A DNA stretch of 64,000 nucleotides from an uncultured Gammaproteobacteria bacterium (GCA_964490105.1 CAZAZU010000001.1:227804-291803), one strand, 5' to 3'. Counted from the first letter of the stretch, positions 16,318 to 61,960 are shown. The notes: a model not told the origin generated them from the letters alone. Made by a program: numbers and translations.

Positions 16318-16533
16318 TCAATACTTAAAATTTAAGTTTATCCCTGTTCCTGAGCCTTTTCGTATTACGGCGCCGGTAATTTGTCTTTTCGGGTTTGTCG
16401 GGACGTTGGTTTTTTTTATGATTCTTGTAGATATTTGAGTGACTACTCCGCCCTGCACAATTACCTCAACGCTACCGAAGTGTATATTATCTATTGCTTG
16501 TTTGATTTCATCGATTATCGATTGATCAGCCAT
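16318..16533 (-). CDS. small YezD-like (DUF2292-type) protein
   Basis: 'IDEIKQAIDNIHFGSVEVIVQGGVVTQISTRIIKK' resembles the YezD 'GSVxIxxxDGxVxQI' core. Confidence 0.35.
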   Translation of the reverse strand: MADQSIIDEIKQAIDNIHFGSVEVIVQGGVVTQISTRIIKKTNVPTNPKRQITGAVIRKGSGTGINLNFKY

Positions 16534-16536
16534 AAG

Positions 16537-17199: not shown

Positions 17200-17332
17200 C
17201 TTAAATAAAAATGCCCCTTTCTCGGGGCAAGATTTAGTCTTCGGATATTAACAAAATTTTTTTGTTCTTGTCAAGAGGAATATTTTTGTCACTCATTTTA
17301 AGCACGAAATGCTATAATACCAACCAAATCTA

Positions 17333-18814: not shown

Positions 18815-18891
18815 TTGCTTGACACTTTTTTAAAAGATCTATATAGTACTCTAACTATGACTTATAATTTTAACATAATAGTAAGAGACTA

Positions 18892-18915
18892 ACCGCCATT
18901 TTGGGCGGTTTTTTA
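18892..18915 (+). terminator. rho-independent terminator
   Basis: ccgcc-attttg-ggcgg hairpin followed by tttttt. Confidence 0.5.
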
Positions 18916-18967
18916 TCGAAAAAACACAATTTAATTTGAATTTTAATTGTGAAAGGAGGTGAAAAAA

Positions 18968-19804
18968 ATGAAAATTAAAAGAATTTTAACGATATTTTCA
19001 GGAATAATTGTAGTTTTTGCTTTTGCATTCGTTGCAAATGCAGCTACTTCTATAGTTTACCCAGGTAATGAAAATGGTTGGGTATTTGTTGATGATAATG
19101 ATAACTCAGTAGGTTCTGGAACATTTGTTTCTGGTCCCGCTACTCCACCCTTAGGAAATGGTAGTGCGAGATTATTTGCAAATGTATCATCAGACAGGGA
19201 AATGCTTGTTTTGCCACAGTATCAGGGAACAAAACTTTCTGATATTACAAAACTTGAATACTCTACTTATAGAGTTTCAGGAGGGCCAGCTTTAGCGATT
19301 GCTCTTCAGTTTAATATAGATACTGATCTGACTGATGCAAATACATCATGGCAATCAAGACTTGTTTATGAACCATACTACACCCACACTGTAAATACAG
19401 GTGTATGGCAGACATGGAATACTCAAGACGATTCTGGAACTGGAAATTGGTGGTTTGCAGGTGCACCACAGAATGCGGTTTGTGGAATTGGTAACCCTTG
19501 TACATGGAGTGAACTTAAAGCAGCATTCCCAAATGCTGGAATTCACTCTACTCTAGGTGCAATTTTGTTTAAAGCAGGAGGTGGATGGACAGGATTTGAT
19601 GGAAATGTTGACGCATTTACAATCGGAGTTAACAACGTAGATAATACGTATGACTTTGAATCAAGTGCTCCAACACCAACACCTACACCAATAGTTGGGC
19701 CGCCGACTAGTAAAGATGAGTGTAAGAAAGACGGATGGAAAACATTCAACAATCCTACATTCAAAAACCAAGGACAATGTGTAAGTTATACCAATCATAA
19801 CTAA
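18968..19804 (+). CDS. secreted protein, paralog of the N-terminal domain of the RTX-like protein at 8922
   Basis: RBS aaggaggtgaaaaaaATG. Signal peptide. Shared motifs with 8922..10127: GPAxPPLGxGS, LxxITxxxYSTY, LQFxID, YEPxYQ, WQTW, WW, GGG. Cys-containing C-terminus. Confidence 0.55.
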   Translation: MKIKRILTIFSGIIVVFAFAFVANAATSIVYPGNENGWVFVDDNDNSVGSGTFVSGPATPPLGNGSARLFANVSSDREMLVLPQYQGTKLSDITKLEYSTYRVSGGPALAIALQFNIDTDLTDANTSWQSRLVYEPYYTHTVNTGVWQTWNTQDDSGTGNWWFAGAPQNAVCGIGNPCTWSELKAAFPNAGIHSTLGAILFKAGGGWTGFDGNVDAFTIGVNNVDNTYDFESSAPTPTPTPIVGPPTSKDECKKDGWKTFNNPTFKNQGQCVSYTNHN

Positions 19805-19830
19805 TCACGGTTTATTTGGAATTTAAATAG

Positions 19831-19858
19831 CCCACCCTAACCGGTGGGTTATTTTTTT
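19831..19858 (+). terminator. rho-independent terminator
   Basis: cccacc-ctaa-ccggtggg hairpin followed by ttattttttt. Confidence 0.5.
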
Positions 19859-19874
19859 GTGTTATGATATTTTC

Positions 19875-21278
19875 ATGGCTTTAAAACCTCTCTCGATTAA
19901 TATCCTACCCTCCCCTCCGCCCCTTAAAAAATTAATTGGTCCTAGTTTTATTTTCTTAGGACTTGGACTTGGAAGCGGAGAAATAATTCTCTGGCCGTAT
20001 CTTACAGCAAATTTCGGAATGGGAATTATCTGGGCAGCACTTCTAGGAATTACATTCCAGTTCTTTATGAATATGGAAATTGAAAGATATGCTTTAGTTC
20101 ATGGAGAAAGTGTTTTTGTGGGCTTAGCTCGAAAACTTAAATATATTTCCTTCTGGTTTCTTTTATCTACTTTCATTCCATGGATCTGGCCGGGAATTAT
20201 AGCATCCAGTGCAAAATTATTCGGTGCGACAGTTGGAATTACTGACACTACTTATTTAACTATTATATTACTAGTGGTAATCGGTTTAATTTTGTCTTTC
20301 GGACCAATTTTATATAAAACTGTTGAATCCTTTCAGAAAATTTTGATTGGGATTGGGGTACCAACTATATTTGCACTAAGTGTAATTCTTGCTGAAAAAA
20401 CTGATTTTACTGCGCTTGGAAAAGGTGCTGTAGGGATAGGAAACGGTTACATGTTCTTCCCGGAAGGAATTGTAATGGCTTCCTTCTTAGCAGCCTTTGC
20501 ATATGCCGGAGCTGGCGGAAATCTAAATTTAGCCCAATCATTTTATGTTAGAGAAAAAGGATACGGAATGGGAAAATATGCAGGAAGAATTACAAGTCTT
20601 TTTACAGGAAAAGGCGAAAGCGTATCCCTCACAGGTTCAAAGTTTGAGGTCAACGAAGAAAGCTTGGCTTCGTTCAAACAATGGTGGAGAAATATTAACA
20701 TTGAACACTTCATAATTTTCTGGATAACCGGAGGAGTAACTATCGCTCTCTTAGGACTTCTCTCCTACTCTACAGTTTTTGGACATCCAGATAACATGGC
20801 AGGTATAAATTTTGTTATAAACGAAGGAAAAGTGATTGGCGAAAAACTATTTCCATTCGCCGGAACTTTCTTTCTTCTCGTCGGAGGCCTTATGCTTTTT
20901 GGTACACAGCTCACTGTTTTTGACGCGACAAGTAGAATTCTTTCAGAAAATATTGTTATTTCAGCACATGAGAAATTATCAGAAAGAAATATTCCAAAAG
21001 TTTATTACATAGTTCTGTGGCTTCAAATTCTAGCAGGAATTGGAATTTTACTTTTAGGATTTACAGAACCGTTGGCGCTTCTGACTACAGCTGCAGTTTT
21101 AAATGCTGTAGCGATGTTTGTTCATATCGGACTAACATTATGGCTTAACTCAACCAGCTTAGATAAAGCGTTAAGGCCAAGTATCACTCGAAAATTTGCA
21201 ATGGGACTCGCTTTTCTTTTTTATGGAGGCTTCAGCACATTCGTAGTCTACGATAGATTTATCAAGCCCCTATTTTAA
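19875..21278 (+). CDS. APC-superfamily-like secondary transporter (NRAMP/BrnQ-like N-terminal motif)
   Basis: About 11 TM helices. 'GLGLGSGEIILWPYL...GMGIIWAALL' resembles the TM1 region of the NRAMP/LIVCS folds. Start is taken at ATG 19875; the track ORF 19857 overlaps the terminator. Confidence 0.35.
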   Translation: MALKPLSINILPSPPPLKKLIGPSFIFLGLGLGSGEIILWPYLTANFGMGIIWAALLGITFQFFMNMEIERYALVHGESVFVGLARKLKYISFWFLLSTFIPWIWPGIIASSAKLFGATVGITDTTYLTIILLVVIGLILSFGPILYKTVESFQKILIGIGVPTIFALSVILAEKTDFTALGKGAVGIGNGYMFFPEGIVMASFLAAFAYAGAGGNLNLAQSFYVREKGYGMGKYAGRITSLFTGKGESVSLTGSKFEVNEESLASFKQWWRNINIEHFIIFWITGGVTIALLGLLSYSTVFGHPDNMAGINFVINEGKVIGEKLFPFAGTFFLLVGGLMLFGTQLTVFDATSRILSENIVISAHEKLSERNIPKVYYIVLWLQILAGIGILLLGFTEPLALLTTAAVLNAVAMFVHIGLTLWLNSTSLDKALRPSITRKFAMGLAFLFYGGFSTFVVYDRFIKPLF

Positions 21279-21962
21279 ACTTTTTATAAATCCTTCAATT
21301 TTATTCATAAATCCGGTTTCGTCGATTCTATGAAGGTGCCATTTGTGATTATATTTATTAATTGTAAATATCTCAGCGCTTGGAAGTAATTTTAATACTT
21401 TCTCACCCATCTTGGATGAAGCCATCCTGTCTTTAGAACTGTAGTAAAGAAGAACAGGGATTTTAATTTTAGATAAATTATCTTTACTTAAATATTTAAA
21501 CTCGCTTAAGGTTTTTGAAATACTGAGTCTGTTTGCAACTGGAATTCTTAAAACATTTACTGTTTTTCTAAATCCGAAGAAATAAGGCATTCCAGCTATT
21601 ATTATGCCTTTAACTTTATCTGGGTATTTATTATAGTATTTTAAAGAAAGTAATCCTCCGTAGCTCGTGCCAAATAAAACAAATCTTCTTCCGTTTGATG
21701 TGGCTTCAATTACTTCGGCGATGAACGTTACTCGATCTTTTTTAAAATCTTTTAAGTATCCAAATCCAGGAAGGTCAAAGGCAACCACGCAATAATTTTT
21801 CATTAGATATCTTGGGGGAAGATCACCGATATATTCAGAAAACCCCCTGAAATATCCATGAATAAAGTAAATTAAGGGGTTTTTGGGGTCTCCATAAACC
21901 CAAACAGGAACACTTGCATTATCTATATTAAAATATTTTGTCTCGTGAGGATCGCTAATCAC
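21270..21962 (-). CDS. alpha/beta-fold hydrolase
   Basis: HGxxxG-like 'FIHGYFRG'. Nucleophile elbow 'GTSYGG'. Typical length. Confidence 0.55.
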   Translation of the reverse strand: MISDPHETKYFNIDNASVPVWVYGDPKNPLIYFIHGYFRGFSEYIGDLPPRYLMKNYCVVAFDLPGFGYLKDFKKDRVTFIAEVIEATSNGRRFVLFGTSYGGLLSLKYYNKYPDKVKGIIIAGMPYFFGFRKTVNVLRIPVANRLSISKTLSEFKYLSKDNLSKIKIPVLLYYSSKDRMASSKMGEKVLKLLPSAEIFTINKYNHKWHLHRIDETGFMNKIEGFIKSLK

Positions 21963-21981
21963 AGGTAAATTATATCAATTA

Positions 21982-22749
21982 TTATGCGGTTTTTTGAGAA
22001 TTCTGTCCCAAGACTACAGGTGAAGGTAAATTTACCCCTGGTCTTCTGTCTAATCTAAGTAATCCATATGGCACGTACCCATCAGTTTTCGCTTCGTATG
22101 AGTCAACATATCTATGACTTACGCCTGCAGAATCCAGTTTTTGAACCCACTTGTTTACAGGTATTCCATTAACCTGAAGAGATTTCGCAGGAGGAATTTG
22201 TAAAATAGTGGTCCCATCAGTTGAGTTTAATGTTTCCCAAATTTTTTCAATAGCTTTACTTGTAAAACCCAGATTTGTAGGTAAAAATTTAAGTCCACCT
22301 GCACCCCTAGACATAACAAAATCAGCCTTATCACCTTTTAACCATTCATCAATTTTTTCCCATGTAGCAGGATCATTTAAAGTTCCCGATAAAAAAGTAA
22401 TCCCTTCGCGTGTATCTCTTTCAGCTTTTTCTGGTGTTCTAGGATCATGAAATCCTACAGCTAGTCCTCTAAATGACTTTGGACGTAAATATTTTCCTAT
22501 GCTTCTTACAGCAGCTGGACCTGAAAGGAGATCTATAACAATTGGCTCATCTTTGAGTTTTAATCGATCTAAAATTTCAAATTTATCAGTCTGTACTCTT
22601 CCGATATCTTCCAGATAATCCCAGTAAGTCGATTCATGAATTACCCATTTGCCTGGCTCATTGTCTCCATCGCCAATCACATCTTGCTCAGGTGTAAGGG
22701 GTGGCTTGCCGGTTCTTGAAAATCTATGGCTTTCAGGTTTCATATCCAT
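21982..22749 (-). CDS. hypothetical protein (GC-richer block)
   Basis: Intact 255-aa ORF. No family recognised. Confidence 0.4.
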   Translation of the reverse strand: MDMKPESHRFSRTGKPPLTPEQDVIGDGDNEPGKWVIHESTYWDYLEDIGRVQTDKFEILDRLKLKDEPIVIDLLSGPAAVRSIGKYLRPKSFRGLAVGFHDPRTPEKAERDTREGITFLSGTLNDPATWEKIDEWLKGDKADFVMSRGAGGLKFLPTNLGFTSKAIEKIWETLNSTDGTTILQIPPAKSLQVNGIPVNKWVQKLDSAGVSHRYVDSYEAKTDGYVPYGLLRLDRRPGVNLPSPVVLGQNSQKTA

Positions 22750-22833
22750 ATTATACTATAAGCTCCTATTTTGTTCAAAGTTGTATTTACTTAATTATAG
22801 TACTACAATTAACGCGTAATAGATTAATTAGAT

Positions 22834-23418
22834 ATGGAAAGACAGCCAATCCCCGTCCGGATTGGTGAACAAGCCTCAACTCCGGGCGGAGAACTTATAA
22901 GAGTCGACTTTGTAAATAAAAAAGTCGCAAGACGGGACCAGCAAAAACCAGGTAAAGTACCTCGATATGAATCCGAGCATGCTGTAGTAGCCGAAAGCTT
23001 GGGAATTTCAGTTAGAAGTCTGAATGTTTTATCAGAAGATGAAGGATTTGTAGAAGTGTCTCAAGGAGATCCTATTGTAGCGGCAACGCATATTGGAGAC
23101 GGGGATGGTCATGACAGGCTCGTGGTTATGAGTTTTGGTATGGATCCTGATGTAGCAGCTTCGATAGCTGATCAGCATAAATCTAGACTTCAGGATGAAA
23201 TTAGTGAAGTGTCTAAAGAAGCTTCTATTAATAATAGAATGACTGGGTTTCAAGTCAGAGAAGCCATGAAGGATGGAAGAGAAGGACGTGAAGTGGTTAT
23301 TTTTTCTCAAGCTGCGGATGGAAGGAAAAAAACAGAACGAAGAAGGGTTAAGGGAAAAATTGCAGAAGTTATACCCCTTTTCCCAAATGTAGAAGCCGAA
23401 ATCCCAGCTGCAGCCTAA
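22834..23418 (+). CDS. hypothetical protein (GC-richer block)
   Basis: Intact 194-aa ORF. Arg/Glu-rich. No family recognised. Confidence 0.4.
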   Translation: MERQPIPVRIGEQASTPGGELIRVDFVNKKVARRDQQKPGKVPRYESEHAVVAESLGISVRSLNVLSEDEGFVEVSQGDPIVAATHIGDGDGHDRLVVMSFGMDPDVAASIADQHKSRLQDEISEVSKEASINNRMTGFQVREAMKDGREGREVVIFSQAADGRKKTERRRVKGKIAEVIPLFPNVEAEIPAAA

Positions 23419-23439
23419 TATGCTATAGTTGAATTACTG

Positions 23440-23634
23440 ATGAAAAATATTAAATATATTTTGGTAGCGATTTTAATTTTACTTGGAATTTATATGCTCA
23501 CTGTTCATTACCCTCCGCTTCCCTTTAATCACGAAGCAATTGGACTTGGATATAATCATATGATGCATAGGATATTTGGAATAATATTTATAGCTGCTGC
23601 AGTTTTAGTATTTTGGAAATGGAAGACTAAATAG
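23440..23634 (+). CDS. small two-TM membrane protein
   Basis: 64 aa, two hydrophobic helices, tight spacing to neighbouring genes. Confidence 0.3.
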   Translation: MKNIKYILVAILILLGIYMLTVHYPPLPFNHEAIGLGYNHMMHRIFGIIFIAAAVLVFWKWKTK

Positions 23635-23636
23635 CA

Positions 23637-24389
23637 ATGTCGGAACCTGCTAAAGAACCATTTAGACCTCCGGAAAATCCTTTTAACCTAGCTGTAATTG
23701 ATTCTCTTAAAACACTAAACCACTCACTTTCTCTAAAATCTAAATCCCCACTATTAATAGACGCAAATGGAGTTTCTTTGCATAATGGCGGGATGCCTTT
23801 AGCAAGAATTACTGGAAATAATTTAATTGTTGCTGGAGAAAGTTTTCAAAGACGAATAGCCGCAGAGCCTGGGTCTGTACCTCAGATGAAAGGAGATCTT
23901 GGAGAATTTTTAGGTGAACTTGGAGATTCTCTAAAATCTTTAAATCATTTAGGAATCAGTTATTTTGTGCCGGATTTAGAACATGAACATCAAAACGTAA
24001 AGCATTTGGCAGTAGAATCAGGGATTGAGTTTCACGAGGATCCAGAAGCACTTGAGGGACAGGAATGGATATTTTTAGGCCACACCGATGACTGGCGCTC
24101 TCCCCTTTTCGAGATGGTGCTTAATCAAGGTGAACCAGATCCATCTGATTTCTGGAGACCGCATTTTCAAATAGATTTAGATACACATCTACCTTGGGAA
24201 GAGATTAAAGAGTTAGCTGATAAACATTTCGGTCCTGATTTTTTTAAGTGGACACTTGATGCGCCAAATGTGGGGACATTTATGGGAATGGGAGTCATAG
24301 GAAATGTAGGAGGATCCAAAATCGCTTTAGGTCTGGGAGCTACTAAAAGAAGCGCAGAATTCCATCGCACCCAACTCCAAAGCCATTAA
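23637..24389 (+). CDS. hypothetical protein (GC-richer block)
   Basis: Intact 250-aa ORF immediately after the small membrane protein. No family recognised. Confidence 0.4.
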   Translation: MSEPAKEPFRPPENPFNLAVIDSLKTLNHSLSLKSKSPLLIDANGVSLHNGGMPLARITGNNLIVAGESFQRRIAAEPGSVPQMKGDLGEFLGELGDSLKSLNHLGISYFVPDLEHEHQNVKHLAVESGIEFHEDPEALEGQEWIFLGHTDDWRSPLFEMVLNQGEPDPSDFWRPHFQIDLDTHLPWEEIKELADKHFGPDFFKWTLDAPNVGTFMGMGVIGNVGGSKIALGLGATKRSAEFHRTQLQSH

Positions 24390-24504
24390 ATTGTGAACTG
24401 TCAGACCAATTTTTGGAACACCTCATTTCTTACGCTTCACAGGTCTACAATGTTTTGGTTGAATTAAATTTTGCACCATCTCAGCCATAATTTTTCCGAT
24501 TTCG

Positions 24505-25170
24505 TCAATCCTTTCTTGTTCCTCTTTTGGTAGAGGTGGAAGGTTCTTTAGTTTTTCCAGCTCCTCCTCTAGTGTCATATGTTTCTTCATGTGTAGATTT
24601 TGGAAATTCTATTTTCAGTTTAGCGAGAATTTCCCTAGGAAGTTTATTCGATTTATCGGGCCTAATTAATTCATCGTCAAGGTCTACGAATACTTGCGAA
24701 TAATCTTTTTTGCTTTGTTCTTTATTTTTCTCACCAAAGTAAACCACCCCTATCCGTTTACCATCCTTTTCACTAATTTTAACAGCTAAAAAATATTTGT
24801 CATCTTCGTCTCTTAATTTAATCTGACTTGGAAGCTCATCCAATGATTCAACGGGAATTGAAGCTCTTTTCTTCAGAACGTAATCAAGCACTACTTGTTC
24901 TCTCGCATCTTCTAATGAAGCCCCTAGTATATGTTTTCTTTTACAGACAGAGCAAAATGTTGGTCCTGTATAGTTATCGTCAAAAACTTCAACTTCTCCA
25001 TATTCCGGATGGGTTTCTGTTATGAAAGCTTTTTTTGGAAAAAGAATTTCCATTTTACAAGATGTACAAAAAGGACCTTTAATATCCCGAGTTGAAACTT
25101 CTCCAACATAGTCTTCGATATACCAAAAGAACCCTTGTGATTTATGGAATTTACTGTAGGTTGTTCTCAT
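24505..25170 (-). CDS. hypothetical protein with two CxxC pairs (possible zinc ribbon) and a basic tail
   Basis: 'FCTSCKMEI...FCSVCKRKH'. Lys/Arg-rich C-terminus. Confidence 0.4.
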   Translation of the reverse strand: MRTTYSKFHKSQGFFWYIEDYVGEVSTRDIKGPFCTSCKMEILFPKKAFITETHPEYGEVEVFDDNYTGPTFCSVCKRKHILGASLEDAREQVVLDYVLKKRASIPVESLDELPSQIKLRDEDDKYFLAVKISEKDGKRIGVVYFGEKNKEQSKKDYSQVFVDLDDELIRPDKSNKLPREILAKLKIEFPKSTHEETYDTRGGAGKTKEPSTSTKRGTRKD

Positions 25171-25531: not shown

Positions 25532-26011
25532 TTAGTAGCTTCCTCCGTATCCACCTATATCTTCTTTTCTGCTTAGTTGTGGATTAGCAGGGTCTCTGCC
25601 AATTACTTTTCTTGGATTTCTAACTGCTTCACCAAAAGTGTTGGTAACTATAGCTGGATCTTGAATTATATCAATAGGGGTTATTATTCTAGTCTCTGCA
25701 CCTACAATTGTGAAAGTATTCTGATCAGGATCAACTATAGCAAAAACAGATGCGCTTTCAATGCCGATTGGTGGATTAGGACTATCAAAATAGTTTGTTA
25801 AAGCCATAAAATACTTTTCATCTTCAGTAACGCCATGGGAATATCTTAAAAAACCATCTGCAGTAAGCTGGAATGCTTCCAGAAGTCCAACTGAAACTGC
25901 TAGATTCATACCGCGATGCTTAATTCGCCAAAGATGATTCTCCCTCTCCCTAAGCTCTTCAGCTGTTGGAGCATTCGAACGTTTCCTTCTTAAATCCTCT
26001 AAATATCCCAT
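25532..26011 (-). CDS. hypothetical protein
   Basis: 159-aa ORF ending 1 nt from tRNA-Glu. No family recognised. Confidence 0.35.
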   Translation of the reverse strand: MGYLEDLRRKRSNAPTAEELRERENHLWRIKHRGMNLAVSVGLLEAFQLTADGFLRYSHGVTEDEKYFMALTNYFDSPNPPIGIESASVFAIVDPDQNTFTIVGAETRIITPIDIIQDPAIVTNTFGEAVRNPRKVIGRDPANPQLSRKEDIGGYGGSY

Positions 26012-30178: not shown

Positions 30179-30697
30179 ATGGATAGCGATATAGAAAACA
30201 TAAGGTTTGAGAGCCTCACCCACGGACAATTATCCATAGACGAAGTTCTTCAAATGATAAAGGATTTTTTAGAAGAAAATCCCAAAAGCGAGTATAGTCT
30301 TGTAATTGGAACTGACTCACATGAAATAACAGGAAATGAACCAAGAAGCAGAAAAATTAATTTAGTAACTGCTATTTTAGTGCATAGGAAAGGATTCGGA
30401 GGTAAATATTTTTGGAATAGGAAGTCAGCTGGTAACATTCACTCATTAAGAGAAAAGATTTATGCCGAAACTATGACGTCGCTTGGTTTTGCAAGTACAT
30501 TTGTGCCGCTTTTAAAGAAAAAATTAAACGGTCAGTCACCTAACTATAATCTTGAAATACATATCGACGTTGGCGAGCATGGAGACACGCGGGAGATGAT
30601 TAAAGAAGTTGTGGGAATGGTAACAGGAAGCGGATTTGTTGCAAAGACTAAGCCTTATGCATATGGAGCTTCTTATGTTGCCGATAAACATACTTGA
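30179..30697 (+). CDS. YkuK/DUF458-like (RNase-H-like fold) protein
   Basis: 'LVIGTDSHEI...' core and ~170-aa length resemble YkuK-family proteins. Assigned from memory only. Confidence 0.3.
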   Translation: MDSDIENIRFESLTHGQLSIDEVLQMIKDFLEENPKSEYSLVIGTDSHEITGNEPRSRKINLVTAILVHRKGFGGKYFWNRKSAGNIHSLREKIYAETMTSLGFASTFVPLLKKKLNGQSPNYNLEIHIDVGEHGDTREMIKEVVGMVTGSGFVAKTKPYAYGASYVADKHT

Positions 30698-31103
30698 TAT
30701 GAGAAAAAAATCTAATACAAAACTAGAATGGGAAGAAGCAGTGGATGTGAAGCGTGATTTAAAAAAAATAATTCATACACTTGAATTTGATCATATTCAA
30801 ATTTCCCGTGTCTTTTGTTATAGAACTGAAGGAAGTAAGGCTAGAGCTTATGCCAGAACCTGGATGATGCCAAAAATTTTTCAGCACGCCTTAGGAATCG
30901 AGCCCGCTTACGTTATCGAAGTTCTCTCAAAGTATTACGATAAGCTAAATGAAGACGAAAAATCTAAAGTTCTTATTCACGAGCTCTTGCACATACCCAA
31001 AAATTTCTCTGGAGCACTTCTCTCACATAGAGGCGTTGGTCGTCATATAGGGCATGATTCAAATGCGCTGTTTAAAAAATACAAACAATTAAAAGACCAA
31101 TGA
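30636..31103 (+). CDS. predicted zinc metallopeptidase (HExxH), family uncertain
   Basis: 'LIHELLHIPKNF' HExxH motif. The ORF overlaps the upstream gene by 60 nt, so the true start is probably an internal Met. Confidence 0.35.
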   Translation: MLQRLSLMHMELLMLPINILDMRKKSNTKLEWEEAVDVKRDLKKIIHTLEFDHIQISRVFCYRTEGSKARAYARTWMMPKIFQHALGIEPAYVIEVLSKYYDKLNEDEKSKVLIHELLHIPKNFSGALLSHRGVGRHIGHDSNALFKKYKQLKDQ

Positions 31104-44195: not shown

Positions 44196-44486
44196 TTATG
44201 GATTTAATCTAGGGCTTTTTACGTGGTTAAGTTTTGCTCTTCTAACTTTCATTTTTGGCTTTGCTTTAAAATCTACCTTATCTACATTTGGATTTCCAAC
44301 ATGCCAGATTCTTTCAACTGCGACATCTCCAACTACTTTTCTAACAGTATAGCTTTGGTTTTCGCCTCTTCCTTTAATTTGAAGAACTTGACCCTCGAAA
44401 ATCTGAGTTCTAGTTTTTTCTCCTTCTGTAATTTTCTGGTGAACTCTTACGATGTCACCAACTCTAAAATCTATAGTTTTTAACAT
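44196..44486 (-). CDS. rplS: 50S ribosomal protein L19
   Basis: 'FRVGDIVRVHQKITEGEKTRTQIFEGQVLQIKGRG...YTVRKV...GVERIW...' and C-terminal 'VRRAKL'. Confidence 0.85.
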   Translation of the reverse strand: MLKTIDFRVGDIVRVHQKITEGEKTRTQIFEGQVLQIKGRGENQSYTVRKVVGDVAVERIWHVGNPNVDKVDFKAKPKMKVRRAKLNHVKSPRLNP

Positions 44487-48772: not shown

Positions 48773-48848
48773 GGGGTGGTAGCTCAGTTTTGGTTAGAGC
48801 GCTTCCCTGTCACGGAAGAGGTCGCGGGTTCGAGTCCCGTCCACCCCG
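48773..48848 (+). tRNA. tRNA-Asp (anticodon GUC); 3' CCA encoded (48849-48851)
   Basis: Manual cloverleaf: GGGGTGG acceptor, anticodon loop CTGTCAC, TTCGAGT T-loop, discriminator G then CCA. Confidence 0.85.
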
Positions 48849-48880
48849 CCAAAACCCAACGGTATATAATTACTACAACT

Positions 48881-50641
48881 GTGACTAATAAAGAAATTGC
48901 GCAGCTTTTTAGAGACGTAGCTGCTTCTTACTCCATAAAAAATGAGGCAAAATTTCGCTTTCAACTTCTTGCGTACCAAAATGCAGCTGATGCCATAGAA
49001 GGCTTATCTACTCAAGTTCATGATTTATATAAAGAAGGGAAACTTGATGATATTCCTGGCATTGGAAAAACTCTCAAAGAGAGACTTGAGGAACTTCTTG
49101 AAACGGGGAAAGTAAAACATTTCGAAGAAGTAATGAGGGGAATCCCAGAACCGGTTTTTTTACTAATGAAAGTGCCATCAATTGGTCCAAAGAAAGCATA
49201 TAGACTCGCGACAGAATTTAAGCTAAACAAAAACGAGACTGCTATTGATGATTTAAAGAAAGTTGGAGAAAAAGGAGAAATCGCCAAGCTGGAGGGTTTT
49301 GGAGAAAAATCCCAGTCAGATATTTTGAGGGCACTTGAGGAATACAAAAAAGGTTTTGGTAAAACTACCAAGATGCTTCTTCCCTATGCCGGAGAAATTG
49401 CCTCTGACATGCTTGATTACTTAAAGAGAGATAAAAATGTAAAAGAAGCACTACCATTAGGTTCCTTAAGACGCAGAAAACCTTTAGTGGGAGATATTGA
49501 TATCGCAGTTGTTAGTAACGATCCCGCAAAAACAATTGAGCATTTCACGAAATACCCTAGATCCAGCCGAATAATTGAAAGAGGACCTTCAGGGTCTTCC
49601 CTTCTTACAACTGGAGGCGCACAAATAGATCTTTTAGTTTTAGAACCAGTTCAATGGGGTTCACTCTTGCAGCATTTTACCGGCAGCAAAGATCACAACG
49701 TTCATCTTAGAGAACTAGCTCTTAAAAAGGGGCTTTCTCTAAATGAAAAAGGAATAAAAAATGTAAAAACAGAAAAAGTTAAAAAATTTTCCAAGGAAGA
49801 AGATTTTTACGAAGAATTAGGGATGGACTGGATTCCGCCTGAAATGCGAGAAGACTCTGGAGAAATTGAATTAGCTCTTGCACATAAATTACCAAAAATA
49901 ATTGACGTTAAAGACATAAAAGGAGATTTTCATCTTCATTCAAGTTTTCCAGTTGAACAGTCTCATGATCAAGGACAAAGCTCGATCGAAGAAATGACGC
50001 AAATGGCAAAAGACCTAGGCTACGAATATCTAGGTTTTTCCGAGCATAATCCTAGTCAATCAAAACATACTAAAGCGCAAATCGTATCTCTCCTAAAGAA
50101 AAGAAATGACGAAATAGACAGAGTTTCCAAAAAATTAAAACTTCCTATTTTTAAATTAATGGAAACAGATATTTTGCCCGACGGGTCTCTTGCGCTTCCA
50201 GATGAAGCTCTTGATGAATTAGATGGTTCAATTGTTTCAATTCACAGTGTTTTTAAAATGGATAAAGATCAGATGACTAAAAGAATCATAAAAGGGCTTT
50301 CACATCCAAAAGCTAAGATTCTTGCCCACCCCACAGGAAGACTGCTTAATGAGAGGAACGGTTACGAAGTAGATTTTGAAACATTATTCAAATTTTGCCG
50401 AGAAAATAATAAAGCTTTAGAAATTAATGCATATCCAAATAGATTGGACCTTGAAGGACCAGTTATCAGAATGGCAATTGAGGTTGGGGTCAAATTAACC
50501 ATAGACACTGACTCTCATGAAAAATCTCAAATGATGCTCATGCCTTATGGCGTATTTCAGGCTAGACGAGGATGGGCTAAAAAATCTGACATAATCAATT
50601 GCCAAAAACCAGAAGTTGTTGTAGAATGGTTTAAGTCATGA
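48881..50641 (+). CDS. polX: family X DNA polymerase with C-terminal PHP phosphoesterase domain (PolX)
   Basis: Pol-beta-like N-terminus 'EIAQLFRDVAASYSIKNE...FRFQLLAYQNAA'. HhH 'IPGIGKTLKERL'. Palm 'GSLRRRKPLVGDIDIAV'. PHP 'GDFHLHSSFP...SEHNP'. Start taken at GTG 48881, because the track ORF 48776 overlaps tRNA-Asp. Confidence 0.75.
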   Translation: MTNKEIAQLFRDVAASYSIKNEAKFRFQLLAYQNAADAIEGLSTQVHDLYKEGKLDDIPGIGKTLKERLEELLETGKVKHFEEVMRGIPEPVFLLMKVPSIGPKKAYRLATEFKLNKNETAIDDLKKVGEKGEIAKLEGFGEKSQSDILRALEEYKKGFGKTTKMLLPYAGEIASDMLDYLKRDKNVKEALPLGSLRRRKPLVGDIDIAVVSNDPAKTIEHFTKYPRSSRIIERGPSGSSLLTTGGAQIDLLVLEPVQWGSLLQHFTGSKDHNVHLRELALKKGLSLNEKGIKNVKTEKVKKFSKEEDFYEELGMDWIPPEMREDSGEIELALAHKLPKIIDVKDIKGDFHLHSSFPVEQSHDQGQSSIEEMTQMAKDLGYEYLGFSEHNPSQSKHTKAQIVSLLKKRNDEIDRVSKKLKLPIFKLMETDILPDGSLALPDEALDELDGSIVSIHSVFKMDKDQMTKRIIKGLSHPKAKILAHPTGRLLNERNGYEVDFETLFKFCRENNKALEINAYPNRLDLEGPVIRMAIEVGVKLTIDTDSHEKSQMMLMPYGVFQARRGWAKKSDIINCQKPEVVVEWFKS

Positions 50642-54202: not shown

Positions 54203-54487
54203 ATGAAGTTTGATATCGCTCATGTTGCAAAACTCGCAAATCTATCGTTAACCGACGAGGAAAAAAGTAAATTCGAAAAACAACTTGAAGAAACTGTTGA
54301 CTACATCGAAGGCTTAAGCGAAGTCGATACACAAGGTGTAGAACCAATCTCTCAGGTTACAGGACTTGAGAATATTACCCGTGAAGATGAAGTCACGCCC
54401 TCCTTATCCCAGGAAGAAGCACTAAAAAATGCAAAATCAACTCACAAAGGCTACTTTAAGGTGAAGGGAATTTTAAACAGTGAATAA
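54203..54487 (+). CDS. gatC: Asp-tRNA(Asn)/Glu-tRNA(Gln) amidotransferase subunit C
   Basis: 'VAKLANLSLTDEEKSKFEKQLEETVDYIEGL'. Confidence 0.75.
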   Translation: MKFDIAHVAKLANLSLTDEEKSKFEKQLEETVDYIEGLSEVDTQGVEPISQVTGLENITREDEVTPSLSQEEALKNAKSTHKGYFKVKGILNSE

Positions 54488-55088
54488 CCCTGCAACCTTT
54501 TACATAGTCAGACATTCTGAAACTGACTGGAACGTAAAGCATTTAATGCAGGGTCATTCAGACTCTCAACTTACATCAAAAGGGGTTAAAGATTCAGAGA
54601 AATTGGCAAAAAAATTAAAACCCATAAAATTTGATCTGATATTTTCTTCTGATCTATCGAGAGCAAGGCGAACCGCTGAAGCAATCTCATTAGATAGAGA
54701 TATTGCGATAAAAACAACAGAACTCATTAGAGAAAGAAGATATGGTGAATTTGAGGGTAAACATAATTCAGAATACGAAGTCGTAAATGAAGCGCTTGAT
54801 AAATTGTCAGAAGAACAGAGATATACCTACAAACATTCGCCAGGAATAGAAAGCGATGAAGAAGTTGTAACTAGATTTTTAACTTTTATTCGAGAGGTTG
54901 CCGTCGCTAATCCGGGCAAGACTATTCTGGCCGTAAGTCATGGCGGTATAATGCGTGCTTTTATGAAAAAACTTGGATTAAAAAATACTATCCGAGGAGG
55001 AGTTCGAAACAACGCTTATATAAAACTTGAAACAGACGGTGTAGAATTTGAAATTAAAGAAACTAGCGGAATTACATTCTCAGATTAA
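54480..55088 (+). CDS. histidine phosphatase family protein (phosphoglycerate-mutase-like)
   Basis: 'FYIVRHSETDWN' RHG motif. C-terminal 'VSHGGIMRAF'. Overlaps gatC by 8 nt. Confidence 0.65.
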   Translation: MNNPATFYIVRHSETDWNVKHLMQGHSDSQLTSKGVKDSEKLAKKLKPIKFDLIFSSDLSRARRTAEAISLDRDIAIKTTELIRERRYGEFEGKHNSEYEVVNEALDKLSEEQRYTYKHSPGIESDEEVVTRFLTFIREVAVANPGKTILAVSHGGIMRAFMKKLGLKNTIRGGVRNNAYIKLETDGVEFEIKETSGITFSD

Positions 55089-56576: not shown

Positions 56577-57899
56577 ATGAGTAAATATACTCCAGTAATT
56601 GGACTTGAAGTACACGTTGAGCTGAAAACAAAATCAAAAATGTTTTGCGGCTGTGATGCTTCTTATTTTGGCAAAGAACCGAATACTCACACTTGCCCGG
56701 TTTGCTTGGGTCTTCCTGGAGCGCTTCCTGTTCCAAATAAAAAGGCGATTGAATGGTGCATAATGATCGGACTCGCACTAAATTGTAAAATCCCTGACTT
56801 TTCTAAGTTTGACCGTAAAAATTATTTCTATCCGGATCTTGCTAAAGGTTATCAGATTTCTCAATATGATCTCCCTTTTGCAGAAAAAGGCTACATAGAG
56901 CTATCAAGTGGCAAAAGAATTGGTATAACACGTGTCCACATGGAAGAAGATACCGGAAAACTGTCCCATGAAACAGTGGACGGAGAAAAAGTGAGCTTAA
57001 TTGATTTCAATCGCTCTGGTGTACCACTCGTGGAAATAGTAACTGAACCAGATTTTGACAATGCAAATGACGTAAAAGAATATCTGCAACGCCTTCAGCA
57101 AATTGTCAGATATTTAGATGTATCTAATGCAGACATGGAGCGGGGAGACATGAGGCTTGAGCCGAATATTTCTCTTAGACGTGAGGGCCAAACTGAGCTA
57201 CCAAACTACAAAGTTGAGGTAAAAAATATTAATTCGTTTAATTTTGTCGGAAAAGCCATAGAATTTGAGATTAAAAGACATACGGAAATTCTGGATAAAG
57301 GAGAGACCCCTGCACAGGAAACCCGCGGATTTGTGGAGAGCTCAAGCTCCACCGTATCTCAAAGATCTAAAGAAGACGCTAAGGACTATAGATATTTCCC
57401 AGAGCCCGACATTCCCCCATTTAGATTTAGTGAGGAATATATCGAAAGCATAGAATGCCAAATTCCTGAACTGCCTCATGTAAAAATTAAAAGATTTATA
57501 GATACTTATGCGCTATCTGATTACGATGCAGAAATTCTGACAAGAGATAGATTTACCGCAGAGTTTTTTGACAAAGCTTCAAATCTCGCCCAGGAGCAAG
57601 ACGTGAAAAGAAAAGATCTGGCAAATTACATTATTAATAAAAAACCAGATCTCTCAAAATTAACCCCAGAAGAATTAGTAAAAGCAGTCGCGACATCAAA
57701 CCAAGTAGCAGACGTGGATGAAGCTAAATTAGATGAAATAATAGATAAAGTCCTAAAGGAGCAAGCTAAAGCAGTTACAGACTTCAAAAGTGGCAAAGAA
57801 ACCGTTATAATGTTCTTAGTTGGCCAAGTTATGCGCCAATTCCCTGAAAAAATTGATGCAGGGAAAGTTAAGGCGAGTTTACTCGCGAAATTAAAATAA
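56577..57899 (+). CDS. gatB: Asp-tRNA(Asn)/Glu-tRNA(Gln) amidotransferase subunit B
   Basis: 'VIGLEVHVELKTKSKMFCGC', 'CPVCLGLPGALPV', 'RVHMEEDTGK'. C-terminal YqeY-like helical domain. Confidence 0.9.
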   Translation: MSKYTPVIGLEVHVELKTKSKMFCGCDASYFGKEPNTHTCPVCLGLPGALPVPNKKAIEWCIMIGLALNCKIPDFSKFDRKNYFYPDLAKGYQISQYDLPFAEKGYIELSSGKRIGITRVHMEEDTGKLSHETVDGEKVSLIDFNRSGVPLVEIVTEPDFDNANDVKEYLQRLQQIVRYLDVSNADMERGDMRLEPNISLRREGQTELPNYKVEVKNINSFNFVGKAIEFEIKRHTEILDKGETPAQETRGFVESSSSTVSQRSKEDAKDYRYFPEPDIPPFRFSEEYIESIECQIPELPHVKIKRFIDTYALSDYDAEILTRDRFTAEFFDKASNLAQEQDVKRKDLANYIINKKPDLSKLTPEELVKAVATSNQVADVDEAKLDEIIDKVLKEQAKAVTDFKSGKETVIMFLVGQVMRQFPEKIDAGKVKASLLAKLK

Positions 57900-57900: not shown

Positions 57901-58740
57901 ATGCCAGATGGAAATAGCACACCAATAGATGCTTTAAAACCAAGCGAATCACAAACTGCAACTCCTTTATCTCCAAGCACTAGCAAAAGATCCATAAGTT
58001 ATTGGAAAAGCCAGATAAATCAAAGAATAGCATCAAATATCATGACCTCGATGAGATTTGGGACGGATGCAACAGCAAGAGTACCAAGAGATATGAGGCA
58101 TAGTGCAGTAAAAGAACTTAAACTTGAACAAAAAGTTCTTATTAACTCTGGAACTGAGCTAATGAACAAAGAACCTTACCAAAATGAGCGAAGAAGGATG
58201 CTAGGAGCAATAGACCGTGATATTTCTACTCCAACCGTCGAAGGAATCCATTTAGATATTGATAATTTTGGAATATTTAATAAACAGTTTGGTGACACTA
58301 TAGGAGACGAAGTACTATTAAATGTCGGTAGAACAATAAACTCCACGAAAAGAGAGACTGATATTGCGGGAAGGGTTGGCGGAGAAGAAATAGATATTAC
58401 GGCTCCTCAAACCGTAAGCCCTACTAGACCACAACCGGAAGAGCCTGTACTTTTAGCAGAAAAAATCAGATTGGCAATAAAACAAGCTAAATCACCATCA
58501 GGCAAACAAGTTACTGTCAGCATAGGCACAACTAAATATATAAGAGGCGAAGGAGAAACATCATACCGCACTAGACTTGAGACTGCTCAAATTGCAGCTA
58601 AAAGATTTGGCAAAGATAGAGTTGTAGAGGCAACTGTTGATGATCAAGGAGATGTATATAGAGATGTTTCTACAAATATTAGATATAGAGCTGAATATGA
58701 TCAGGAAGGAAAAATATTAGGATTTACCCCAATTAAATAA
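57901..58740 (+). CDS. GGDEF-domain protein (diguanylate-cyclase-like) with variant GGEEI signature
   Basis: 'IHLDIDNFGIFNKQFGDTIGDEVLLNVGRTI...IAGRVGGEEIDI...VTVSIGTT...AKRFGKDRVV' matches the GGDEF fold. The last signature residue is Phe->Ile. About 100-aa N-terminal region of unknown function. Confidence 0.6.
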   Translation: MPDGNSTPIDALKPSESQTATPLSPSTSKRSISYWKSQINQRIASNIMTSMRFGTDATARVPRDMRHSAVKELKLEQKVLINSGTELMNKEPYQNERRRMLGAIDRDISTPTVEGIHLDIDNFGIFNKQFGDTIGDEVLLNVGRTINSTKRETDIAGRVGGEEIDITAPQTVSPTRPQPEEPVLLAEKIRLAIKQAKSPSGKQVTVSIGTTKYIRGEGETSYRTRLETAQIAAKRFGKDRVVEATVDDQGDVYRDVSTNIRYRAEYDQEGKILGFTPIK

Positions 58741-58741: not shown

Positions 58742-61700
58742 ATGGCGGACTTTGTACACCTTCACAATCATAGTGAATATTCACTTTTAGACGGGCTCTC
58801 GAAAATTACTGAAATGGTTTCGCAAGCTAAAGCACTGGGCATGAAAGCATTAGCGATTACTGATCATGGAAATCTTTATGGTGCAATTAAATTTTATAGG
58901 GCCTGTAAAGAAGCTGGTATAAAACCAATCATAGGATGCGAGATCTACATTTCAAGACGCACTCGCCATGATAAAGAAGCCGGTCTGGATTCAGATTCCA
59001 ATCATTTAATCCTGCTCGCAAAAAACGATACAGGCTATAAAAACTTAATGAGAATTATCTCTATCGCAAACCTTGAAGGATATTATTACAAGCCAAGAAG
59101 TGACATGGAACTTTTAAAGCAGTACAGCGAAGGTTTAATTTGTCTTAGCGCATGTGTAAACGGATATGTTTCCGAACCGCTTCTAGAAAACCAGGAGGAA
59201 ACAGCTGAAAAAAGAGCAAAAACACTGTCTGAAATCTTTGGTAAAGATAACTTTTACTTAGAAATTCAAAAACATTTAAACGTCAAAAAGCAGGATGAAC
59301 TAAACGAAAAACTTATAAAACTCTCAAGAAAGTTAGGAATTCCGCTTGTTGCCACCAACGATAACCATTATGTAAAAAATGGAGACGCGGAAGCTCAAGA
59401 AGTACTTCTATGTATACAGACCCAAACCACCCTTACAACTCCTAACAGAAAGCTTTCAATGATAGACTCCCCTGATTTTTATATGAAAAGCTCAGAAGAA
59501 ATGACAGGGCTATTTATTCAGACACCTGAAGCTGTAGAAAATACTGTAAAGATCGCTGATATGTGCGACCTGGAAATTCAGCTTGGGAAATGGATCATGC
59601 CTGTATTCGACGTTCCAGATAAAACTTCTTCAGGCGATTATTTAAAAAAACTTGTTAAAGAGGGACTCAAAAAAAGGTACGGTGAAATTACAGAAGAAAC
59701 AGAAAAGCGAGCCGACTATGAACTCTCAATTATTATCGGAAAGAAATATGAAACATATTTCTTAATCGTAGCTGACTTTGTGAGATGGGCTAAGTCCCAA
59801 GGAATAAGTGTGGGACCAGGAAGAGGCTCAGCTGCTGGTTCAGTTGTCTCTTATGCTTTAGGAATTACCGATATTGACCCGTTCTTTTTTAATCTGCCGT
59901 TTGAAAGATTCTTAAATCCAGACCGTCCATCAGCTCCAGATATCGATTTAGATTTTGCAGATACTAGACGGGATGAGGTTATTGAATATGTCACTAAAAA
60001 ATATGGAAAGGATAAAGTGGCGCAAATTATAACCTTTGGAACCATGGAAGCCAGAGGATCAGTTAGAGATACGGGGCGTGCTATGGGAATGCCTTATTCA
60101 GGTCCAGATAGAATCTCGAAAATGATCCCTCCAGGATGGCAAGGACACGCTATGACACTTGATACAGCACTTGAGCAAAGCCCTGAATTAAAAATGGCCT
60201 ACTCCACTGAATCTGATACAAAAAAACTTCTTGATTTAGCAAGAAAAACAGAAGGGGTGGCCCGTCACGCTTCAGTGCACGCTGCTGGAGTTGTAATTGC
60301 CGATAAGCCTTTAACAGATTACACTCCCCTTCAAAAAGAAACGAACGGTGACAAAGTTATTACTCAGTACGATATGTATACAGTAGGAGAAGATGGAGTC
60401 GGACTTTTAAAAATGGACTTTTTGGGACTTCGAAATCTAACTATTATCGAAGAGGCTTTAAATTTTATAAAAATAAATAAAGGCGTAGAAATTGACCTTT
60501 CCACACTTCCTCTGGACGACAAAAAAACATATGATCTATTATCAGAAGCTGAAACAACTGGAATTTTTCAGCTTGAATCTGCTGGAATGCGTCGTTACAT
60601 TAAGGATTTAAAGCCTACTTCCATATTTGATCTTATGGCCATGGTAGCGCTATACCGCCCCGGTCCTATGGCAAATATTCCAGAGTTTATCGAGAGAAAA
60701 AGAGATCCTTCGAAAATAAAACTCCCCGATAAAAGACTGGAAGAAGCGCTAAAACAATCTTACGGAATGCTTGTATACCAAGACGACGTTTTACTTACAA
60801 CTATTGCTATCGCTGGCTACACATGGCTTGATGCAGATAAGTTTAGAAAAGCTATGGGAAAGAAAATTCCAGCAGAAATGAAAAAACAAAAAGAACAATT
60901 CATGACTGGAGCTATTGCGAATGGTTTGTCTCAAAAAAAAGCAGAATCAATTTTTAATCTTATTGCTCCTTTTGCAGGATACGGATTCAACAAGGCACAC
61001 GCCGCTTGTTACGCGACAATTGCATACAGAACTGGGTATCTTAAAGCAAATTACCCCGTAGAATTCATGACAGCACTTTTAACTGCTGAGTCGAGAGGCT
61101 CTACTGGTCCTGTAAAAAACGAGAAAATCGCTCAAGCAATAGCTGAATGCAAAAGATTAAATCTGACAGTTCTCCCCCCTAATATAAATAAATCTGGCCG
61201 GGATTTTACGATCGAAGAAAAAACTATGACCAGATTTGGGCTTTCAGCTATTAAAAATGTGGGAGAAGCAGCGATCGCAAATATCTTGGAAAATAGAGAA
61301 AAAGGAGAATTCAAAAGTTTTGAAGATTTTTGTATAAGAGTAAATCTTTCTACTATAAATAAAAAAACAATTGAAAGTCTTATAAAAGCCGGCGCAATGG
61401 ATATCTTCGGAAATCGGGCTCAGCTTTTATCAAATTACTCTGAAATAATTGAAAACGTAAATAGAGTTAAGAAAAACAAACTTGAGGGTCAGTCTAGTCT
61501 TTTCGGAGAAGAAGCTGAAGAAGAGGTTAGATCAACAACTCAGGTCATCGAAGACTTTTCTCCAAATGAAAAACTGGGATTTGAAAAAGAATTTTTAGGT
61601 TTTTACTTAACATCTCATCCCCAAATGGCAAATTTATTGGCTGTAAAATCTCTGACTAGCCACGATATTTCCCAGCTTGAAGAAGTAGTTGAAGGAAAGT

Positions 61701-61960
61701 TTGTGACTGTAGGTGGCATAATCGAAACAACACGCAAGATATTCACTAAAAAAACTGGAGCCGAAATGGCATTTATTACAATTAGTGACGAAAAAGGTGT
61801 AACCATAGAAGTAGTAGTATTTCCGAAAATTTACGAAAGACATAAAAGTCTAATAGCTACAGATAATTTGGTAATCGTCGAAGGAAAACTTGATACTAAA
61901 AACGATAGGCCAGTAATACTCGCGGAAAAACTATCAACCATGAAATATTCCCCATCTTGA
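58742..61960 (+). CDS. dnaE: DNA polymerase III alpha subunit (DnaE)
   Basis: 1072 aa. PHP domain 'FVHLHNHSEYSLLDG'. Palm/fingers 'GPGRGSAAGSVVSY'. OB-fold C-terminus. Confidence 0.95.
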   Translation: MADFVHLHNHSEYSLLDGLSKITEMVSQAKALGMKALAITDHGNLYGAIKFYRACKEAGIKPIIGCEIYISRRTRHDKEAGLDSDSNHLILLAKNDTGYKNLMRIISIANLEGYYYKPRSDMELLKQYSEGLICLSACVNGYVSEPLLENQEETAEKRAKTLSEIFGKDNFYLEIQKHLNVKKQDELNEKLIKLSRKLGIPLVATNDNHYVKNGDAEAQEVLLCIQTQTTLTTPNRKLSMIDSPDFYMKSSEEMTGLFIQTPEAVENTVKIADMCDLEIQLGKWIMPVFDVPDKTSSGDYLKKLVKEGLKKRYGEITEETEKRADYELSIIIGKKYETYFLIVADFVRWAKSQGISVGPGRGSAAGSVVSYALGITDIDPFFFNLPFERFLNPDRPSAPDIDLDFADTRRDEVIEYVTKKYGKDKVAQIITFGTMEARGSVRDTGRAMGMPYSGPDRISKMIPPGWQGHAMTLDTALEQSPELKMAYSTESDTKKLLDLARKTEGVARHASVHAAGVVIADKPLTDYTPLQKETNGDKVITQYDMYTVGEDGVGLLKMDFLGLRNLTIIEEALNFIKINKGVEIDLSTLPLDDKKTYDLLSEAETTGIFQLESAGMRRYIKDLKPTSIFDLMAMVALYRPGPMANIPEFIERKRDPSKIKLPDKRLEEALKQSYGMLVYQDDVLLTTIAIAGYTWLDADKFRKAMGKKIPAEMKKQKEQFMTGAIANGLSQKKAESIFNLIAPFAGYGFNKAHAACYATIAYRTGYLKANYPVEFMTALLTAESRGSTGPVKNEKIAQAIAECKRLNLTVLPPNINKSGRDFTIEEKTMTRFGLSAIKNVGEAAIANILENREKGEFKSFEDFCIRVNLSTINKKTIESLIKAGAMDIFGNRAQLLSNYSEIIENVNRVKKNKLEGQSSLFGEEAEEEVRSTTQVIEDFSPNEKLGFEKEFLGFYLTSHPQMANLLAVKSLTSHDISQLEEVVEGKFVTVGGIIETTRKIFTKKTGAEMAFITISDEKGVTIEVVVFPKIYERHKSLIATDNLVIVEGKLDTKNDRPVILAEKLSTMKYSPS

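Follow-up and report, generated by a model that had tools for sequence, protein, structure and literature searches.

A small GGDEF protein in the variable gatB-dnaE slot of a Levybacteria-like genome: a candidate diguanylate cyclase with a divergent active site

What does a lone GGDEF-domain gene do between two housekeeping genes, gatB and dnaE, in a streamlined genome, and is its product an enzyme or the remains of one? The question is raised by a stretch of 64,000 nucleotides (CAZAZU010000001.1, positions 227804-291803; hereafter the window), in which an initial annotation had pointed out such a gene and suggested either a degenerate receptor or a minimal cyclase. The open reading frame (ORF) map confirms that the gene is wedged between gatB and dnaE; the genome is a Levybacteria-like one of the Candidate Phyla Radiation (CPR). 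The annotation gave spacers of 2 nucleotides (nt), but the raw sequence reads 1 nt on both sides (TAA-t-ATG after gatB and TAA-c-ATG before dnaE). It also overlooked that many interchangeable types, of which this gene represents one, are found at the gatB-dnaE slot in relatives. The slot of the window is laid out as follows.

56577-57899, + strand: gatB, which is conserved and borders the variable slot upstream; the GGDEF ATG follows 1 nt after its stop codon
57901-58740, + strand, ATG to TAA: the whole ORF of the stand-alone GGDEF protein, 279 residues, the window's "type A" of the slot
58742-61960, + strand: dnaE, which is conserved and borders the slot downstream; it starts with an ATG 1 nt after the GGDEF stop codon, and from this ATG on nucleotide identity to relatives is regained

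From the sequence comparisons below we propose, with a probability of roughly 0.6, that the gene encodes a small, sensor-less, constitutively co-expressed and product-inhibited diguanylate cyclase, which would convert two GTP to cyclic di-GMP (c-di-GMP).

The protein scores above the curated cut-offs of Pfam PF00990 (59.1 bits against 23.8, E 6e-16) and TIGR00254 (67 bits against 37.4), which bears out its assignment as a GGDEF-domain protein. At E<0.05, 47 solved GGDEF chains match it, with SiaD (7e6g, E 7.8e-13) at the top, and the palm-like GGDEF fold is present. The four motifs quoted in the initial annotation were all found in the translation: DIDNFG at residues 119-124, R-V-GGEEI at 158-164, TVSIGTT at 205-211 and AKRFGKDRV at 233-241. 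The domain had been described as the C-terminal 170 residues. Its presence holds, but its placement does not: because the TIGR00254 profile covers residues 77-241, it is central, and it is followed by a further 38 residues that had been overlooked. The unassigned N-terminal part amounts to about 80 residues rather than about 100. Pfam and NCBIfam match nothing outside the GGDEF domain, in agreement with the earlier statement that no sensor is recognisable.

A structure was predicted with AlphaFold2 (AF2) on the alignment of 36 family sequences described below, giving a predicted local distance difference test (pLDDT) value of 83.8; with six close homologues only, the value was 49 and the model unusable. 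The protein is divided into four parts.

57901-57981, + strand: residues 1-27, Ser/Thr/Pro-rich, predicted to be disordered (AF2 pLDDT <50)
57979-58140, + strand: residues 27-80, two helices (27-52 and 62-80 in the AF2 secondary structure), no known domain
58153-58623, + strand: residues 85-241, the GGDEF catalytic core
58624-58737, + strand: residues 242-279, the C-terminal beta extension, with strands 241-247, 250-255, 261-266 and 272-278 (AF2 pLDDT 92-95)

In the model, the second N-terminal helix (62-80) enters the GGDEF domain in what we infer to be the manner of the dimerising stalk helix of other cyclases. The beta extension is not part of canonical GGDEF domains; it has two conserved residues, D255 and Y262, and neither a Pfam family nor any other known domain was identified for it. 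The N-terminus reads MPDGxSTP, and these first residues are conserved even between otherwise unrelated types of the slot: the start M-[PS]-[DE]-G-S-S-x-P-E is seen in L005, L007, P0132, P0133, P0135, P0151 and others (L and P numbers denote related loci and proteins). Like SiaD of Pseudomonas aeruginosa (7e6g), the protein is small and carries a helical stalk N-terminal to its GGDEF domain; DgcB (6ttr) and WspR (3bre) are further cyclases with a stalk and a GGDEF domain. The window protein is no equivalog of SiaD, however. The NCBIfam SiaD model is the second-best match, with a score of 63 against a cut-off of 290, the siaABC partner context is missing, and the N-terminal helices are unrelated in sequence. 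PleD of Caulobacter crescentus (1w25, 2v0n) differs in having receiver domains and in lacking the 38-residue C-terminal beta extension.

PleD 327-372 aligns without gaps to residues 119-164 of the window protein (offset 208). The PleD sequence was taken from the PDB alignment, and the roles of its residues from PMC12943098 and PMC7288161. The correspondence is as follows.

PleD D327 (metal): D119
PleD K332 (proposed transition-state stabiliser): G124, a departure
PleD N335 and D344 (guanine): N127 and D136
PleD L347 (substrate binding): L139
PleD R359xxD362 (inhibitory site, I-site): R151-E-T-D154
PleD R366 (conserved Arg before GG): R158
PleD G368-E371 (signature of the active site, A-site): G160, G161, E162 and E163
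PleD F372 (signature Phe): I164, a departure
PleD R390 (I-site, helix alpha3): K188, a conservative change; the family consensus is Arg, and R190 is conserved
PleD K442 (phosphate): K234
PleD R446 (phosphate): K238, a conservative change
PleD DxLTGL turn before the domain: NSGTEL, a departure

In the window, the motifs that carry these residues lie at the following positions.

58255-58284, + strand: residues 119-128, DIDNFGIFNK, with D119, G124, N127 and K128 (PleD D336, by the offset)
58351-58362, + strand: residues 151-154, RETD, the I-site (RxxD), at the same distance of five residues ahead of GG as that of PleD
58378-58392, + strand: residues 160-164, GGEEI, the A-site signature with Ile for Phe (codons GGC GGA GAA GAA ATA)
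58600-58614, + strand: residues 234-238, K-R-F-G-K, with K234 for K442 and K238 for R446 of the PleD sequence

The metal ligands D119 and E162/E163 are kept. A check of the I-site and metal-binding residues by alignment, as the initial annotation had advised, found D119, E162, N127, D136, K234 and R151..D154 all present. The RxxD that marks product-inhibited diguanylate cyclases thus stands five residues before GG, as R151-E-T-D154. The final residue of the signature is indeed Ile (I164). The "DxDxFK-like" motif DIDNFG is there as described, but the lysine of DxDxFK is Gly (Lys332 to Gly), which had been overlooked. In sum, the window protein differs from PleD by K332 to G with a Lys at position 336, F372 to I, R446 to K and R390 to K. 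Hypr GGDEF proteins, which are cyclic GMP-AMP (cGAMP) synthases, have Ser instead of the guanine-specifying Asp (PleD D344). Here this residue is D136, at least 90% conserved, which is the c-di-GMP state and not the Hypr one.

How far this pattern is shared was assessed by homology searches. A word-based search with the single protein returned five close relatives of 70-96% identity, and a word-indexed search with the family profile returned mostly generic GGDEF proteins. An exhaustive profile search yielded 19 representatives with E<1e-30. Some 35 short proteins, of 236-353 residues, can be aligned from end to end, and at the level of 50% identity some 35 representatives also match through the C-terminal extension. 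In the resulting family alignment (36 sequences, mean identity 33%), D119, D121, G135, L139, R158, G161 and K234 are invariant. N127, D136, R151, D154, E162, E163 and K238 are at least 90% conserved, as is G160. This set of columns coincides almost exactly with the residues of catalysis and of the I-site. RxxD is found in 29/35 of the family representatives.

The glycine at PleD position 332 is a property of the family: it occurs in 28/35 representatives, compared with Lys in 98/111 generic GGDEF matches. Position 336 follows 332 at a spacing of i to i+4, where helix alpha1 begins. Among 267 GGDEF sequences, G332 is accompanied by Lys or Arg at 336 in 38/49, and K/R332 by Asp or Glu at 336 in 200/214 (Fisher p = 2.6e-32, uncorrected for shared ancestry and from a sample biased toward the query). 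The G332/K336 pairing is also present in about seven long multidomain GGDEF proteins. We infer from this covariation that the lysine has been relocated rather than lost and that K128 takes over the role of K332. The relocated catalytic lysine would be a previously unnoticed active-site variant of GGDEF cyclases, and the covariation provides a structure-function prediction for the GGDEF family at large.

The fifth signature residue varies more freely. It is Phe in 15, Leu in 13, Ile in 3, Met in 2, Thr in 1 and Asn in 1 of the family representatives, whereas Phe is found in 93/111 generic GGDEF matches. Within the window's own type the signature is GGEEI, or GGEEL in P0005. The DgcP protein of B. 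subtilis likewise has an aliphatic residue at the position of the signature Phe; with its GGEEL signature it raises c-di-GMP and complements in vivo (PMC5422440), although its GAF sensor domains have no counterpart here. GGDEL/M signatures are treated as probably keeping restricted activity (PMC12900916).

Several points weigh against a working cyclase. The five departures from the canonical enzyme occur together (K332 to G, F372 to I, R446 to K, R390 to K and DxLTGL to NSGTEL), and it is covariation from which the compensation by K128 is read. Among the types at the slot, that of the window scores lowest with the Pfam GGDEF profile (59 against 73-115 bits). The initial annotation had also recommended a search for EAL, HD-GYP or PilZ partners; within the 64-kb window, which the search covered (50 ORFs; Rfam), no EAL/HD-GYP phosphodiesterase, PilZ protein or c-di-GMP riboswitch was found, and the fetched flanks of relatives contained no c-di-GMP partner either. 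Finally, WspR reportedly loses its activity when Phe is changed to Leu (PMC4331095, which cites Malone 2007). The literature on the fifth residue is thus split, so that the change from Phe to Ile alone decides nothing; the Ile is presumably a tolerated hydrophobic swap.

Some of these points would also fit a different protein altogether: a catalytically dead or near-dead GGDEF domain that serves as an adaptor, binding c-di-GMP at the I-site or GTP at the A-site and relaying nucleotide levels to a partner protein, on the model of PopA, PelD or the GTP-sensing GGDEF domain of PdeA. The intact and highly conserved RxxD would suit such a protein, and so would Gly at position 332, Ile for the signature Phe and the weakest GGDEF profile score among the slot types. 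The conserved C-terminal beta extension and the N-terminal motif could be its partner-binding surfaces. We nevertheless regard the adaptor as unlikely. Degenerate receptors (PopA, PelD and the GGDEF domains of LapD/FimX) have lost GG(D/E)E and the base-binding residues, whereas the window protein keeps both. Instead of a lost A-site beside a kept I-site, the A-site residues are retained except for K332 and F372. D119, N127, D136, E162, E163 and K234 persist in the family at a mean identity of 33%, and a pure receptor would not need the A-site residues kept. The G332/K336 covariation looks like an active site that has been repaired, not abandoned, and a GGEEL cyclase works in vivo. A receptor would also require a source of c-di-GMP, and no further GGDEF gene was seen in the window. 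Of the two possibilities in the initial annotation, the alignment thus favours the minimal cyclase and disfavours the receptor, with catalytic and I-site residues conserved alike.

Within its type, the GGDEF gene is under purifying selection about as strong as that on gatB. In comparison with L001 and L002, its ratio of nonsynonymous to synonymous substitution rates (dN/dS) comes to 0.054 and 0.044, respectively; the values for gatB and dnaE are 0.037 and 0.021. Constraint like that on essential neighbours argues that the gene is no decaying remnant.

The mechanism that we propose for the cyclase runs as follows. The gene would be transcribed along with the gatCAB-dnaE housekeeping genes. The protein may dimerise through the N-terminal helical stalk predicted at residues 27-80, and the dimer would condense two GTP to c-di-GMP, with K128, one helical turn later, standing in for the missing transition-state lysine (PleD K332, here G124). 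As there is no input domain, output would be set mainly by binding of the product at the RxxD I-site. The result would be a homeostatic basal level of c-di-GMP rather than a response to a signal. No terminator-like site was found on the + strand between the GGDEF gene and gatB or dnaE. A promoter and terminator scan gave matches no more often than expected from shuffled sequence, so that the transcript is not definable from the scan. Shine-Dalgarno-like motifs precede 11/57 genes of the window, and the missing motif before the GGDEF gene is therefore unremarkable.

The occupants of the slot were compared by fetching the gatB neighbourhoods of relatives whose GatB identity ranges between 68% and 89%. 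In every relative fetched there is a single small GGDEF gene (209-439 residues) between gatB and dnaE, with spacers of -8 to +2 nt, and the order gatB-GGDEF-dnaE is kept in 10/10 distinct loci examined. The junction sequence CGAAATTAAAATAATATG at the gatB/GGDEF boundary is common to the window, L002, L004, L005 and L007. The slot has at least 11 types, whose mutual identity is only 25-43%; under single-linkage clustering at 50% identity, 15 sequences linked to the locus fall into 11 types. The GGDEF proteins do not track the proteins that flank them. Protein identities in representative pairs are given below.

Window vs L002: GatB 86%, GGDEF 85%, DnaE 94%
Window vs L004: GatB 75%, GGDEF 73%, DnaE no value
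Window vs L005: GatB 81%, GGDEF 25%, DnaE 87%
Window vs L007: GatB 84%, GGDEF 27%, DnaE 94%
L002 vs L007: GatB 93%, GGDEF 26%, DnaE 98%
L009 vs L016: GatB 87%, GGDEF 25%, DnaE 93%

Between L002 and L007, nucleotide identity is about 0.9 in gatB, falls to a random level (about 0.27) from 20-30 nt or so past the GGDEF ATG, and is about 0.9 again from the ATG of dnaE. The flanks have a synonymous rate (dS) of 0.65-0.70 and a nonsynonymous rate (dN) of 0.01-0.04; in the GGDEF gene the values are 1.70 and 1.02. Faster protein evolution cannot raise dS, so the GGDEF bodies are older than the split of the two genomes. The excess of dS over that of the flanks therefore indicates replacement in situ rather than gradual divergence. 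Either the slot has been refilled, or ancient alleles have been maintained and shuffled by recombination. Repeated exchange of the GGDEF body has probably taken place by recombination in the conserved flanks. The types of L005 and L007 come from contigs of one sample (SRR12487045) and were recovered 100% identical in a separate assembly, which disfavours chimeric assembly.

The GC content of the GGDEF genes, overall and at third codon positions (GC3), matches that of the flanks in 9/9 loci. Foreign import was rejected on these grounds, and the match points to exchange within the lineage's own gene pool. By Pfam, all types at the slot are GGDEF only. Several are fully canonical (DLDKFK with GGDEF in L005, DIDHFK with GGEEF in L007, and a GGDEF signature in L011 and L012), which argues that the constant function of the slot is that of a cyclase.

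A donor of the L007 type was not found, a scan of Joint Genome Institute (JGI) metagenomes giving generic GGDEF domains only (32-43% identity). Carriage by phage was dismissed after a scan of viral contigs gave two weak generic GGDEF matches only, and membership of a defence system after the window protein and six other types gave no PADLOC match at E<0.01. An exact 13-nt direct repeat, GCAAGCTAAAGCA, flanks the GGDEF gene at 57761-57773 (3' end of gatB) and 58822-58834 (5' end of dnaE), and two matches occurred in 0/100 shuffles of the window. It was judged coincidental as a cassette signal: no other genome has it at this locus, and its two copies both code for QAKA.

Could the slot be a conflict locus instead, with an immune-like or host-interaction cyclase, or one making another nucleotide product, whose types switch because phages, hosts or competitors exert diversifying selection? 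The diversity would be expected of such a locus, 15 genes linked to it representing at least 11 types that share less than 50% identity, as would the L002/L007 pair, with GatB at 93%, DnaE at 98% and GGDEF at 26% identity and the dS contrast of 1.7 against 0.65-0.70. Two types occur together in sample SRR12487045, and the N- and C-terminal appendages vary by type, with an extra 165 residues in L016. Yet no type matches a PADLOC defence model, there is no adjoining effector gene (every locus has gatB on one side and dnaE on the other), and no close relative lies on a viral contig. The guanine-specifying D136 is in the canonical c-di-GMP state and not the Ser of Hypr proteins, and selection within the type is purifying, not diversifying. 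We think a conflict locus quite improbable. The slot may also be a dedicated hypervariable single-gene cassette, in which a cyclase is always present while deeply divergent types replace its body time and again, by recombination in the essential genes on either side. Diversifying or frequency-dependent selection would maintain the types, arising for instance from episymbiotic signalling specific to a host, or from conflict with competitors or phages; we put this forward as a speculative extension that is itself doubtful. If it is true, the cassette would represent a previously undescribed evolutionary mode for a second-messenger enzyme and a first handle on the role of c-di-GMP in CPR bacteria.

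The constant neighbours raise one more possibility, a regulatory subunit that would act on the GatCAB amidotransferase or on DNA polymerase III alpha directly, without a second messenger. The gene adjoins gatB and dnaE in every genome with spacers of -8 to +2 nt, suggesting fixed co-expression. However, swaps of the GGDEF body for versions of 25% identity, next to flanking proteins that are 70-98% conserved, would hardly be expected of a protein with a specific interface on GatB or DnaE. We know of no precedent, and consider this reading very improbable.

Read as a cyclase, the gene sits in the gatCAB-dnaE-atp block of every contig examined, and c-di-GMP would therefore belong to the core physiology of these minimal cells rather than being an accessory biofilm switch. 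Almost nothing is known of second-messenger signalling in CPR/Patescibacteria: in the literature we found only bulk counts of "diguanylate cyclase" genes for them (PMC9938205). Our literature search found no link between Levybacteria or Microgenomates and c-di-GMP, and no account of this GGDEF subfamily or of a variable gatB-dnaE slot. As we read it, the protein belongs to a subfamily of GGDEF cyclases of Levybacteria-like (CPR) contigs that is set apart by the G332/K336 pair in the active site, by a fifth signature residue that is relaxed and by the beta extension at the C-terminus. Switching of types between genomes whose DnaE proteins are 98% identical is unusual for a signalling enzyme, and the slot offers a natural experiment: the same flanks, the same slot and a different cyclase.

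Individual loci show further features. In L016 (7323-8642, equivalent to P0143) the protein has 439 residues, of which about 165 at the C-terminus extend past the GGDEF domain and beta extension and have no Pfam match. Many types end in -AA or -NG (L002, L005, L010, L011; P0136, P0147, P0162, P0206, P0245; L007, L009, P0132). The -NG endings belong to GGDEF genes that share 8 nt (AATGGCTGA) with the start of dnaE. Those in -AA are reminiscent of C-terminal degrons of the ClpXP type, but may reflect no more than the TAATG overlap of stop and start. A DUF5680 gene lies between gatA and gatB in L002 (1876-2343), L009 (5550-5999) and L016 (5550-5999). Further accessory genes (in L009 at 2436-4145) are a NUDIX gene in L009 and a duplicated histidine-phosphatase gene in both L009 and L016. 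The window has a single His_Phos gene, at 54480-55088 between gatC and gatA. The gat operon seems to tolerate insertions generally.

The window as a whole has a GC content of about 37% and contains uvrABC, lexA, enolase, PPDK, murT/gatD, sortase, LysM, gatCAB, dnaE and the atp operon; about 17 of the 50 larger ORFs have no Pfam family. Its GatB is 71% identical to proteins named Candidatus Levybacteria, and every closer match is from metagenome contigs. Levybacteria are part of the Microgenomates group of Patescibacteria/CPR. The contig with the window protein measures 464.7 kb, and one with a mate from its 90% cluster 784.9 kb, in keeping with a genome of CPR size. The 96% identical GGDEF copy in L001 (CAYXTY010000025.1) has Levybacteria-like surroundings, but the metagenome-assembled genome is labelled "uncultured Gammaproteobacteria bacterium"; for that contig, the label is probably a taxonomic mislabel or a binning error.

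A TATAAT-like hexamer is found 6-15 nt before the start codon of many genes in the window. Examples are given here.

17333: start
24505-25170, - strand
25532-26011, - strand
29023: start
30179: start
44196-44486, - strand
54203: start

Together with the rarity of Shine-Dalgarno motifs, these hexamers suggest that leaderless mRNAs, or mRNAs with very short leaders, are the norm in this genome.

Elsewhere in the window, 7882-12591 and 14888-25170 form a likely surface or secreted cluster with a CAP domain, an RTX-repeat protein (8901-10127) and a sortase (10887-11540), followed by a run of about 12 ORFs without a Pfam family. A transglutaminase-like protein is encoded upstream (3119-4948). The two segments may represent a cell-surface or host-interaction repertoire. 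The tRNA-Asp gene at 48773-48851 overlaps the predicted GTG start of a PolX-like ORF (HHH_8 / DNA_pol_B_thumb, 48776-50641), which the public gene call starts likewise; given the overlap, the real start codon must lie downstream of the tRNA. At 30179-31103, just upstream of holA (DNA polymerase III delta), two adjacent and partly overlapping ORFs match the families RNaseH_like (PF04308) and PhageMetallopep (PF18894).
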